Source of the DNA: an uncultured Desulfurococcales archaeon
GTDB taxonomy: Archaea > Thermoproteota > Thermoprotei_A > EX4484-217-1
Length of the DNA: 64,000 bases
Direction: 5' to 3'
Assembly: GCA_964526225.1 (NCBI GenBank)
Contig: CAZGLL010000001.1
Coordinates: 58,903-122,902 of the forward strand
The notes beneath the pieces are model-generated. The model made no database searches, was not told the origin of the DNA, and was given only the letters and a program-made list of their open reading frames with translations. A program made the position numbers and the translations under genes. Of the stretch, positions 1,914 through 54,385 are shown piece after piece. Position 1 is the stretch's first letter; the number at the start of each line of letters is the position of its first letter.

Positions 1914-1976
1914 TAATCAGTATTTAGCCTGTTCTTCATCCCCCATGGGTCATTTCGTGGTCCTTTCATCAGCTCT
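1914..1976 (-). ncRNA. Candidate C/D box sRNA
   Basis: Reverse strand reads CUGAUGA (C), AGGACCACGAAA (12 nt), UGAC (D'-like), CCAUGGG, GAUGAAGA (C'), ACAGGCUAAAUA (12 nt), CUGA (D). It lies between two same-strand genes. Confidence 0.5.
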
Positions 1977-4719: not shown

Positions 4720-5451
4720 TTAAATTTTTAAGTTTTCAGGCAGTTGCACTATTGTTTGAACAGGTATGTTTACTTCCTTTTTCCAACTATTACCTATAGC
4801 TACTAAGACTACTGCACCACTAATTATTGCTTTAACTTTCTCTACAATTCTCACCATTGTTCTAAGTGTTTTTCCTGTCCTAATAATGTCATCTATTATG
4901 AGCACTTCATCTTTACGCTTGATCATCCTTTTTGGAACATAGAACGTTACAATGTCGGCAGAAGGTCCTATGTATGATCCTTCAATGTAATCTATTACAT
5001 CTATATGTCTCGACCTTCTAGCTATAACGAGAGGAACTTGAAATGTTAAGGATATTGCAGTAGCTAGCGGTATACCATTAACTGCAGGTGCTAATACTTT
5101 CGTTACCCTTTTACCAGCAAACATCATGTAAACGTGTTGCGCAATGTACTGTAACATGTACGGATCAGATAGTATTTGCGATAAGTCAACGAAGCCTTCC
5201 CCTGTTATTTCAAGCTTTTCTAGTATAAGCTTCCTAATATCGACCATTTTGTTTAATGCATTCCATATTCTTTCGGCTTGGTCATAACTCGGTATTATTG
5301 AGCCTTTAATATATCTACATAGCACAGTTTCTGGAACACCAGTTATGGATGACAATTCCTTATATGAGAACATTCTTTTAAGCAACTTTAACCTTTCAAT
5401 TACCATGAGGCGAAATCTTAGTGCTTCATACTTATCTGCCGAAAAGCTCAT
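4720..5451 (-). CDS. HTH domain fused to a phosphoribosyltransferase domain (PyrE-like / GfcR-like regulator, COG0856-type)
   Basis: N-terminal HTH (SSITGVPETVLCRYIKG). C-terminal PRPP-binding motif VLIIDDIIRTGKTL. Confidence 0.6.
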   Translation of the reverse strand: MSFSADKYEALRFRLMVIERLKLLKRMFSYKELSSITGVPETVLCRYIKGSIIPSYDQAERIWNALNKMVDIRKLILEKLEITGEGFVDLSQILSDPYMLQYIAQHVYMMFAGKRVTKVLAPAVNGIPLATAISLTFQVPLVIARRSRHIDVIDYIEGSYIGPSADIVTFYVPKRMIKRKDEVLIIDDIIRTGKTLRTMVRIVEKVKAIISGAVVLVAIGNSWKKEVNIPVQTIVQLPENLKI

Positions 5452-5519
5452 ACTCCTTCCCTTATCTCTTAAGCTTTTTCTAATAATTTTTCAACACAAG
5501 TTTAAAAATATTTTTTAAG

Positions 5520-5580
5520 ATATCAGTAATGCGGGAAAACCATCATTTAATATCAGGTCCGAGTGCCCTCATCACCATAT
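5520..5580 (-). ncRNA. Candidate C/D box sRNA
   Basis: Reverse strand reads GUGAUGA (C), GGGCACUCGGAC (12 nt), CUGA (D'), UAUUAA, AUGAUGG (C'), UUUUCCCGCAUUA, CUGA (D). Overlaps the last approx. 8 codons of the zinc-ribbon ORF. Confidence 0.6.
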
Positions 5581-5795
5581 AATTTCTTTTCTAAACCTAC
5601 CTCTTTAGCTTTATAGTACTTAGCAAGTAAATGAGCTTCATAAGAGCTTTTAGCATAAGCTAATGTTCTTAATTCTAAAACCTTTAGACGTCTACCACAA
5701 TACGGACAAAGCTTTGTTTTTTGATTAATCTTTACTATCAAAATATTTTTACAATGCGGACATTTAACTATTCTATATTCGTAAATTGTAGACAT
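5553..5795 (-). CDS. Small zinc-ribbon protein (DUF1922-like)
   Basis: 80 aa with CPHC...CPYCG double CxxC. The 3' end overlaps a C/D sRNA candidate. Confidence 0.5.
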   Translation of the reverse strand: MSTIYEYRIVKCPHCKNILIVKINQKTKLCPYCGRRLKVLELRTLAYAKSSYEAHLLAKYYKAKEVGLEKKLYGDEGTRT

Positions 5796-24267: not shown

Positions 24268-24328
24268 GCTAATCAGCCCTTCCACATGTCTTCATTAAAT
24301 TCCGATCCGGGTTCATTCATCATTTCTA
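24268..24328 (-). ncRNA. Candidate C/D box sRNA
   Basis: Reverse strand reads AAUGAUGA (C), AUGAACCCGGAU (12 nt), CGGA (D'), AUUUA, AUGAAGA (C'), CAUGUGGAAGGG (12 nt), CUGA (D). Canonical spacing. Confidence 0.5.
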
Positions 24329-52469: not shown

Positions 52470-54314
52470 ATGAGAATACTTGCAGTACATGCCGAGAGGT
52501 TTTCATTTGAAGTTAAGCAGAAAGCCGTAGATAAAGCTGAAAAAGTACCTAATGAAAAAAGAAAATATTCTACTAAAAATGTGCTAGTTGTTTTCACAAC
52601 AGTTGAGGAGGGCGATGATAAAAATGTTGAAGCTCTTACTGAAAATGCGGCCAAAGAAATAGCCGAAATAGTCGACAAGGTGAAAGCTAGCGAAGTAGTT
52701 GTTTATCCGTACGCACATTTGTCGAAGAATTTAGCGCCACCTAATGTTGCAATTAGCGTTTTAAAGGAATTAGAAGGAAGACTCAGGAAGAAAGGGTTAA
52801 AAGTTTTTAGAACACCTTTCGGATGGTATAAAGCATTCGAAATTAAATGTTTAGGTCACCCATTATCTGAGCTTTCAAGAGAAATAAAACCAGAAAAGCC
52901 TGCCGAAGAGGTAAAGGAGGAACATGAATATGCGATATTAACACCTGATGGCAAACTTTACTCTCCTGAAGAATATGTTTTCGAGGATGAAAACTTCAAA
53001 ATACTTGTTGAAAAAGAGGCTTTAAAGAAAGAACTTCCTGGAGGAAAACCGAAAATCCCGGAATACTGTGCTAAATTCGCTATAGAATGGGAGCCTTATT
53101 CAGACCATGGACATATGAGATTTGGGCCTGAAGGAGCATTAATAATGGACTTATTAGCTGAATACTCGTGGCAAGTTGTTAGAAGCCTAGGCATACCGGT
53201 GTTCTACGTTAAAGGAACAAACATGTTTAATCTGAAAATAGATGCTGTAATGGAGCATGCTAAACTATTCGGATCAAGACTTTACAGCTTAAAAGTAGAC
53301 AATAACCAGTTAATATTAAGGTTTGCTGCATGCCATCAACAATTCGCAATGCTTAAAGACTGGATAATAAGCTACAAGAACCTACCTTTTGGAATGTTTG
53401 AGGTCGCAGATAGCTACAGACTTGAACAACCAGGGGAAATAACATTATGCTTTAGACTAAGGAAGTTCGTAATGCCAGACCTACACATAATAACCAAGGA
53501 CCTTGAGGAAGCTAAGAAAATAACGTTTCTCGTACAGGAGAAAATATTTGAGGAAATAAGGAAAATAGGTAGAGAATACTATGCAATCTACAATACTACG
53601 AAGAGTTTTCTGAAAGAACACTGGGATTATGTTCTGGAACTTGTTAGAAGAGAAGGAAAACCTGTTCTCCTAGTATTTTATCCTGAAGGAAAATACTATT
53701 GGGTGATAAATGTAGAATACATTATAATAGACCATTTAAAGAGACCTAGGGAAATAGGAACATTCCAAATAGATATAGGGAATGCTAAACGCTTCAACAT
53801 AACGTACCGCGACGAGAAAGGGGAAATAAGATACCCTATGATAATACATACTGCAATAATAGGCTCTCTCGAAAGATATCTTTACGCAATATTCGATACC
53901 GCAGCTAAAGCAAGTGAAGAAGGTAAGAAACCTAGATTGCCAACATGGCTATCTCCCGTCCAAGTGAGGGTAATTCCGGTAAGTAAAGAATTCCTCAATA
54001 AAGCTATTGAAATAGCTAAGAAGATTGAGGAATCGCAAATACGTGTAGATGTAGATGATAGAGATGAAACATTAGGGAGAAAAATAAGAGAAGCTGAAAA
54101 GAACTGGATACCTTACATAGTTGTAGTAGGTAAGAAGGAAGCAGAATCTAACATACTAACTGTAAGGATTAGAGGTGAAGAAAAGGAGAACATTAAGGAA
54201 TTAACGCTTGAGGAACTAGTAAGAATAATTAAGAATGAAACAAAGGGTTACCCATGGAAACCTTTAACTATGCCGATGTTATTAAGTCAAAGACCTATAT
54301 ATAAGAGAGAGTGA
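52470..54314 (+). CDS. thrS: Threonyl-tRNA synthetase (class II) with an archaeal-type N-terminal editing domain
   Basis: Class II motifs (YRLEQPGE...RLRKF; GSLERYLYAI). Anticodon-binding C-terminal domain. N-terminal approx. 140-aa archaeal editing-like domain. 614 aa. Confidence 0.85.
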   Translation: MRILAVHAERFSFEVKQKAVDKAEKVPNEKRKYSTKNVLVVFTTVEEGDDKNVEALTENAAKEIAEIVDKVKASEVVVYPYAHLSKNLAPPNVAISVLKELEGRLRKKGLKVFRTPFGWYKAFEIKCLGHPLSELSREIKPEKPAEEVKEEHEYAILTPDGKLYSPEEYVFEDENFKILVEKEALKKELPGGKPKIPEYCAKFAIEWEPYSDHGHMRFGPEGALIMDLLAEYSWQVVRSLGIPVFYVKGTNMFNLKIDAVMEHAKLFGSRLYSLKVDNNQLILRFAACHQQFAMLKDWIISYKNLPFGMFEVADSYRLEQPGEITLCFRLRKFVMPDLHIITKDLEEAKKITFLVQEKIFEEIRKIGREYYAIYNTTKSFLKEHWDYVLELVRREGKPVLLVFYPEGKYYWVINVEYIIIDHLKRPREIGTFQIDIGNAKRFNITYRDEKGEIRYPMIIHTAIIGSLERYLYAIFDTAAKASEEGKKPRLPTWLSPVQVRVIPVSKEFLNKAIEIAKKIEESQIRVDVDDRDETLGRKIREAEKNWIPYIVVVGKKEAESNILTVRIRGEEKENIKELTLEELVRIIKNETKGYPWKPLTMPMLLSQRPIYKRE

Positions 54315-54327
54315 AATAGTTTAAAAC

Positions 54328-54385
54328 GTTAGTGATGAAGCTGTCGCTACTGAAAGAAAATGATGTAATGAACCTCCGCTGAAGC
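54328..54385 (+). ncRNA. Candidate C/D box sRNA
   Basis: GUGAUGA (C), AGCUGUCGCUA, CUGA (D'), AAGAAA, AUGAUGU (C'), AAUGAACCUCCG (12 nt), CUGA (D). Immediately after the thrS stop. Confidence 0.55.

Follow-up and report, generated by a model that had tools for sequence, protein, structure and literature searches.

A probable dual-guide box C/D sRNA gene overlapping the 3′ end of a zinc-ribbon ORF in an uncultured Desulfurococcales archaeon

Positions 5578-5520 on the minus strand of the window, i.e. the whole 64-kb stretch of DNA from an uncultured Desulfurococcales archaeon that we analyzed (GC content about 35%), very probably encode a dual-guide archaeal box C/D sRNA with two targets in 16S rRNA. 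The sRNA was previously unannotated. It adds a well-supported box C/D sRNA to an uncultivated Desulfurococcales/Ignisphaera-like lineage, and two specific 2′-O-methylations are predicted in the 5′ domain of 16S rRNA. The sRNA leaves the present view of C/D sRNA biology unchanged.

The coordinates of all features are collected in Table 1. The predicted mature RNA is about 55-59 nt long with approximate ends, and it measures 53 nt from the C to the D box. The C and D boxes match the archaeal RUGAUGA and CUGA motifs, and D′ and C′ boxes with a 6-nt linker, as are looked for in a k-loop, are present as well. Both spacers (12 and 13 nt) and the 53-nt length fall within the range of archaeal C/D sRNAs (10-13 nt and ~50-60 nt, respectively). 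Two small deviations were noted: the C′ box ends in GG instead of the consensus GA, and the D spacer comprises 13 nt instead of the canonical 12. The initial annotation had placed the four boxes and the two guides on the minus strand, and we find all of them where it put them. Its description of both D boxes as perfect and of the C box as canonical was correct, with C′ AUGAUGG slightly off consensus, and the D′ box indeed supplies the stop of the 80-aa zinc-ribbon ORF (TGA 5555-5553 within CTGA).

Table 1. Coordinates of the sRNA, its elements and the neighboring genes in the window. L numbers are orthologous loci described in the text.
Feature	Position	Strand	Remarks
Box C/D sRNA gene	5520..5578	minus	Probable; full box set, sub-threshold end-to-end Rfam alignments, ortholog conservation
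C box GUGAUGA (DNA GTGATGA)	5575-5569	minus	No change in any ortholog, L016 and L133 included
D′ guide GGGCACUCGGAC (DNA GGGCACTCGGAC), 12 nt	5568-5557	minus	Also ORF codons G77-T80
D′ box CUGA	5556-5553	minus	UUGA in L133 (stop kept), CCGA in free-standing L016
D′-C′ linker UAUUAA, 6 nt	5552-5547	minus	5-10 nt and variable in sequence among orthologs
C′ box AUGAUGG, near-consensus	5546-5540	minus	AUGAUAU in L010, AUGAUGU in L133, UGAGGA in L016
D guide UUUUCCCGCAUUA (DNA TTTTCCCGCATTA), 13 nt	5539-5527	minus	Core the same in all orthologs
D box CUGA	5526-5523	minus	Invariant in all orthologs
15-nt block TACTATAAAGCTAAA, candidate embedded sRNA promoter	5618-5604	minus	Codons 60-64
T5 run, candidate shared archaeal terminator	5504..5508	minus	15-19 nt past the D box; kept in close orthologs
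80-aa zinc-ribbon ORF (DUF5817/DUF1922)	5795..5553	minus	Pfam-type matches, 16-homolog alignment
HTH and phosphoribosyltransferase-domain gene	4720..5451	minus	Downstream; synteny with the sRNA shared by L016

The sRNA is flanked on the minus strand by AUG before the C box and UAU after the D box, which together give a terminal stem of ~3 bp (G.U, U-A and A-U). The stem is extended to 5 bp (AUAUG/CAUAU) in L007, L075 and L011. Terminal stems of archaeal sRNAs are often short or absent. The predicted fold of the sRNA alone is unremarkable (z=-1.26), which suits a protein-scaffolded guide RNA and speaks against a hairpin element. We therefore rejected a reading of the locus as a structured RNA or a terminator. 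The calls of archaeal TATA and oligo-T elements were made by manual reading of the sequence.

The frequency of such an architecture was assessed with a regular expression (RTGATGA, 10-13 nt, CTGA, 2-9 nt, NTGATGN, 10-13 nt, CTGA). It matched at two sites in the 64-kb window, 5575-5523 on the minus strand and 54332-54382 on the plus strand, and at none in each of 300 first-order Markov shuffles of the window; the architecture is thus far beyond chance. Rfam searched at gathering thresholds returned no match anywhere in the 64-kb window, not even a tRNA. In E-value mode the sRNA matched RF01304 sR5 best (27.4 bits, E=2e-4), followed by snoPyro_CD and sR35, and the relevant matches were end-to-end alignments to archaeal C/D families. 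The sRNA aligns over the full sR5 model with all four boxes in register, but the guide consensus of that family (GCGCCAUCGAAA and ACGGAUGCCUGA) is unlike the guides in the window, so the targets differ. Since the score lies below the gathering score of 40 and the guides are different, membership in sR5 was rejected.

The second perfect C/D architecture, at 54332-54382 (+), reads GTGATGA, AGCTGTCGCTA, CTGA, AAGAAA, ATGATGT, AATGAACCTCCG, CTGA. It is intergenic, 18 nt past the stop of the ORF 52470..54314, and TATATATAAG is found 36-27 nt upstream of it, within the terminal part of that ORF. Scored on the rRNA of a related Ignisphaera MAG (L060), this second architecture gives weaker matches, at best 8 bp in 16S rRNA (nt ~954) and 9 bp in 23S rRNA (nt ~1033). 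Canonical C and D boxes, together with two internal-box mismatches, are present at two looser C/D-like sites, 24273-24323 (-) and 1917-1972 (-); for neither was a convincing rRNA complement detected on L060.

To identify the targets of the guides, pairing was scored against the complete 16S and 23S rRNA of L060, which comes from a related MAG and not from the organism of the window. The best site of the D guide is AAUGCGGGAAA in 16S rRNA (L060 nt 377-387), with 11 contiguous Watson-Crick pairs and guide position 5 opposite G380 of L060 (about E. coli G376). None of 400 shuffled guides reached an 11-pair match. The D′ guide pairs best with CCGAGUGCCC in 16S rRNA (L060 nt 404-413) through 10 contiguous Watson-Crick pairs, with position 5 opposite G406 of L060 (about E. 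coli G402); 2.25% of shuffles reached 10 pairs, a modest significance when taken alone. Positions 1-2 of the D′ guide and positions 1 and 13 of the D guide are unpaired on the 16S rRNA of related MAGs. Both guides thus form at least 8-9 bp with position 5 in the duplex on this related-MAG 16S. A distance of 26 nt separates the two sites, which belong to the 5′ domain. One short region of the 16S alignment published by Dennis et al. (2015; PMC4644070 Additional file 4) includes the complements of both guides, with the D-guide target AAUGCGGGAAA at E. coli ~373-383 and the D′-guide target CCGAGUGCC at ~400-408; the E. coli numbering of the predicted methylated residues was taken from this alignment.

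We then scanned GTDB species genomes for AATGCGGGAAA-N13-21-CCGAGTGCC and obtained at least 120 loci, with a spacing of exactly 16 nt in 112 among the matches listed. Five of them (L030, L047, L060, L107 and L084) are 16S rRNA genes according to Rfam or blastn, and the other listed loci contain the same conserved 16S text. Ignisphaera, Desulfurococcaceae, Sulfolobales and other archaea are represented among the listed target loci. L107, a second Ignisphaera MAG, shares the target text of L060, and its flanks have a GC content of 35% like the window. Among the matches listed, no 16S match shares an assembly with an sRNA match (L016, L075, L093). A metagenome scan with both full target sequences returned no rRNA and instead the sRNA orthologs L010-L012, as the sRNA gene, read in reverse complement, fits the pattern too.

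Nine archaeal 16S genes (L021, L049, L061, L063, L072, L079, L084, L117 and L132) carry an insertion directly 5′ of AAUGCGGGAAA, at the equivalent of L060 nt ~376/377. The insertion is about 30-45 nt long, and about 250 nt in L021. In genes with the insertion AATGCGGG is preceded by agcgg and in the others by ccgc. The insertion point resembles a recurrent intron site, and the D-guide duplex would start at the first nucleotide of the exon downstream of the insertion. A rather unlikely side possibility is an interaction of the duplex with pre-rRNA splicing in intron-bearing relatives.

Orthologous loci were found in metagenomes and MAGs of uncultured Desulfurococcales archaea. In the close orthologs (L001-L012, L075 and L093; ORF at least 82% identical) the four boxes are kept, with C′ AUGAUAU in L010 as the sole exception. 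Their guides differ at three positions only, D′ 12 (G/A), D′ 1 (C/U) and D 13 (U/C/A), each of which either borders a predicted duplex or falls outside it. Across all orthologs the core of the D guide is identical and only position 13 varies. The internal boxes D′ and C′ are more variable among orthologs than C and D. Such variability of internal boxes is typical for C/D sRNAs.

Two more distant loci are particularly informative. L016, a Desulfurococcales MAG, has a copy that reads GUGAUGA, GGGCACUCGGAA, CCGA, a linker, UGAGGA, AUUUCCCGCAUUA, CUGA and lies just upstream of the orthologous HTH-PRTase gene; the DUF1922 ORF is absent upstream of this copy. The guides are thus maintained where they are not protein-coding. 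A TATA-like element, TTTTTATC, is located about 30 nt upstream of this copy and starts 34 nt ahead of its C box. In L133-L135 the DUF1922 protein is only 47% identical to that of the window and still ends in LYSGDEGTRA, and the neighborhood differs, with a rhomboid gene upstream and a convergent HAD hydrolase gene downstream. The DNA of these loci corresponds to GUGAUGA, GGGUACUCGGGC, UUGA, GCUCAACGCU, AUGAUGU, AUUUCCCGCAUUA, CUGA, and the stop codon is again in the D′ box. In the L133 D′ guide, an A-to-G change at position 2 creates an additional pair with the target C, and a C-to-U change at position 9 gives a G.U pair. Judged from the sequences, these changes leave the predicted D′ duplex and methylated nucleotide preserved. 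Fixed boxes and duplex core, combined with changes that keep the predicted pairing, are the conservation pattern of an RNA gene.

At this position an intact sRNA is absent from two DUF1922 lineages, P0005 (L136-138) and P0006 (L139-140). In the latter, a stretch 3′ of the DUF1922 homolog (L139 2729-2775 and L140 2735-2781, plus strand) reads atcTGA, TAGGCT, TGATGC, TGATTTTCCATAGAA. The homolog is 43% identical and has the same GatB...PRTase synteny. The stretch has neither a C box nor a D box and may perhaps be a decayed D′/C′/D-guide half of the sRNA. In the P0004 lineage, precomputed Pfam matches assign intein and LAGLIDADG domains to an adjacent helicase gene (DEAD/ResIII/ERCC3_RAD25_C; L133 1-458, minus strand).

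The ORF that overlaps the sRNA is a genuine gene. It contains a CxxC...CxxC pattern and matches DUF5817 with 34.1 bits (cutoff 31) and DUF1922 with 29.4 bits (cutoff 30). An exhaustive phmmer search gave 89 relatives, mostly proteins of 60-85 aa, and the four cysteines are invariant in 16 aligned homologs. Its genomic context is GatA, GatB, DUF1922, HTH-PRTase, DUF2070 and ParA-like. On the same strand as the sRNA, the stop codon of the ORF sits within the D′ box, and the last seven codons and the stop fall inside the RNA. The C box and the D′ guide encode the end of the protein, G-D-E-G-T-R-T. Both domain matches cover only residues 7-55, and the sequence past about residue 70 is not conserved. 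The tail GDEGTRT is thus outside the conserved domain and therefore able to tolerate the sequence requirements of the RNA. For annotation this means that a C-terminal "GDEGTR" tail would be dictated by the RNA and not by protein function.

Third codon positions among seven distinct close orthologs are variable in 44 of codons 1-56 and in 6 of the 24 codons 57-80 (Fisher p=1e-5). Synonymous sites are frozen from about codon 60, i.e. over the last ~21 codons, beginning ~40 nt upstream of the C box, so that in the ORF tail the requirements of the RNA visibly outweigh synonymous drift. The initial annotation had proposed that the sRNA 5′ half and the ORF 3′ end share sequence, and this is supported by the targets, the orthologs and the synonymous freeze. 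The checks that it suggested gave neighboring 16S rRNA matches for the two guides and an overlap that is present in related genomes down to an ORF of 47% identity. Protein-coding constraint alone, which it had named as the observation that would speak against an sRNA, is contradicted, as boxes and guides are non-coding in L016 and the synonymous freeze is limited to the RNA region.

The frozen zone extends further upstream than the RNA itself should reach. It includes the sequence TATAAAG (5615-5609, codons 61-63), which begins 40 nt ahead of the C box. The 15-nt block TACTATAAAGCTAAA is identical between the window and L133, the ORFs of which are otherwise 37-60% identical at the nucleotide level, and TATAAAG is disrupted in both sRNA-less DUF1922 lineages (P0005 and P0006). 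Going by these four lineages and the spacing of the motif, TATAAAG is possibly an embedded TATA-box promoter of the sRNA. The data agree equally well with co-transcription of sRNA and ORF and subsequent trimming, which is the commoner route reported for archaeal C/D sRNAs (PMC7994747). A further-reaching proposal, which we regard as rather unlikely, is that the last ~65 nt of the ORF would hold three superimposed codes, the protein, the TACTATAAAGCTAAA TATA promoter and the C box/D′ guide/D′ box, co-inherited since before the divergence to 47% identity. If this were true, the TACTATAAAGCTAAA promoter would drive the sRNA independently of the mRNA. The ORF tail can serve as a test case for embedded archaeal promoters.

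The sRNA would most likely be trimmed from a longer transcript to its protein-protected core, the precursor being either the ORF mRNA or a transcript begun at TATAAAG in codons 61-63. By the established mechanism of archaeal C/D sRNPs, L7Ae would bind the C/D k-turn and the C′/D′ k-loop, and Nop5 and fibrillarin would assemble. Once each guide had paired with the nascent 16S rRNA, the target of 2′-O-methylation by fibrillarin would be the nucleotide that faces the fifth base of the guide, counted upstream from D′ or D. For the D′ guide the predicted residue is the G of CCCCG*AGUGCC (about E. coli G402), for the D guide that of CAAUG*CGGGAAA (about E. coli G376); in each sequence it is marked by the asterisk that follows it. 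The closeness of the two targets would also suit the rRNA-folding chaperone role proposed for dual guides (PMC6009581, PMC7994747).

We considered whether the RNA might be only half functional, such that the D guide methylates and the D′ guide is an orphan, held in place by the coding of the ORF tail and matching 16S rRNA by coincidence. In Pyrobaculum, 61% of the guides in sense overlap with an ORF 3′ end have no predicted target (PMC6009581), and the function of an overlapped guide can thus not be assumed. The D′ match alone is equalled by 2.25% of shuffled guides, and positions 1-2 are unpaired on the 16S genes of related MAGs. Coding of the tail, however, does not account for a D′ guide that is kept in L016, where it is non-coding, and the tail is outside the conserved domain and unconserved in most homologs. 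A fortuitous match is at odds with the changes in L133, which keep or extend pairing to the same site, with a distance of 26 nt from the D site, which is a typical dual-guide layout, and with the same guide core being directed to the same site by M. kandleri sR19 and sR20. We therefore consider the half-functional RNA improbable.

A cis-acting role is suggested by the position of the k-turn-forming boxes on the ORF stop codon: an L7Ae-binding k-turn at the 3′ end of the DUF1922 mRNA could control translation termination or mRNA stability, with a guide function that is secondary or absent. L7Ae binding to archaeal mRNAs has been proposed as a regulatory mechanism (PMC5539422), and Lui et al. 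raised regulatory L7Ae binding for overlapping sRNAs (PMC6009581). Yet a cis element needs no two guides with adjacent 16S complements, paired at position 5 and conserved across lineages, and the element persists without the ORF in L016. As the main function it is highly improbable; a regulatory side effect of the sRNA k-turn on the DUF1922 mRNA is possible. The absence of Rfam matches at gathering thresholds and the frequency of UGA-containing motifs near stop codons would fit a third reading, in which box-like motifs arose by chance in AT-rich coding or UTR sequence, or form a terminator hairpin, and there is no RNA gene at all. This reading has next to no probability: the architecture occurs in 0/300 shuffles and is kept both where the protein is only 47% identical and where the sequence is non-coding, both guides match 16S rRNA, and the unremarkable fold argues against a hairpin. 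Chance occurrence of the box motifs is effectively refuted, and a dual-guide box C/D sRNA is by far the preferred explanation of the locus.

Some known sRNAs are predicted to act on the same part of 16S rRNA. Methanopyrus kandleri sR19 and sR20 (PMC4644070 Additional file 1) contain GGGCACTCGGGG and CCGGCACTCGGG beside a D-type box and share the guide core GGCACUCGG, aimed at the same 16S segment CCCCGAGUGCC; the labels K19 and K20 stand over the CCCCGAGUGCC block in the 16S alignment (PMC4644070). M. kandleri belongs to another phylum, however, and the partner guide and the remaining RNA are unrelated, which indicates a conserved site targeted by both rather than a demonstrated homology. Ignicoccus hospitalis sR39 is also a predicted dual guide for this stretch of the 16S 5′ domain, and I39 labels stand over both blocks (PMC4644070), but its guides (TGGGTAACCCCG... 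and GGAATTTTCGT) pair with neighboring and not with the same nucleotides. As its targets are adjacent nucleotides, sR39 was rejected as a homolog. The D guide (CCCGCAUU/CCCGCATT) was not found in the sRNA tables of Dennis 2015 (PMC4644070).

Sense overlap with a stop codon in a box is a documented and common archaeal arrangement. In about 25% of archaeal C/D sRNA genes, one of the four boxes contains the stop codon of an ORF whose 3′ end the gene overlaps (Tripp et al. 2017, as cited in PMC7994747), and the category of sense overlap with ORF 3′ ends also occurs in Pyrobaculum, where targets are retained for 7/18 of the overlapped sense guides (Lui et al. 2018, PMC6009581). The sRNA in the window belongs to this category. 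It shares with it the sense overlap, the UGA stop in a box, a flexible C-terminal tail that accommodates the guide, an independent promoter being unnecessary, and a dual guide whose two rRNA targets are separated by less than 100 nt. Among the reported cases the stop lies in the C box in almost half, whereas here it lies in the D′ box, so that the C box and the D′ guide are coding over their full length. An overlapped guide with a good target, as seen here, is the minority outcome in Pyrobaculum (7/18, PMC6009581). The sRNA is thus a clean example of an ORF-overlapped guide that is predicted to remain functional and, unlike in the known cases of the category, its overlap is retained down to 47% protein identity, having outlived deep divergence of the protein.
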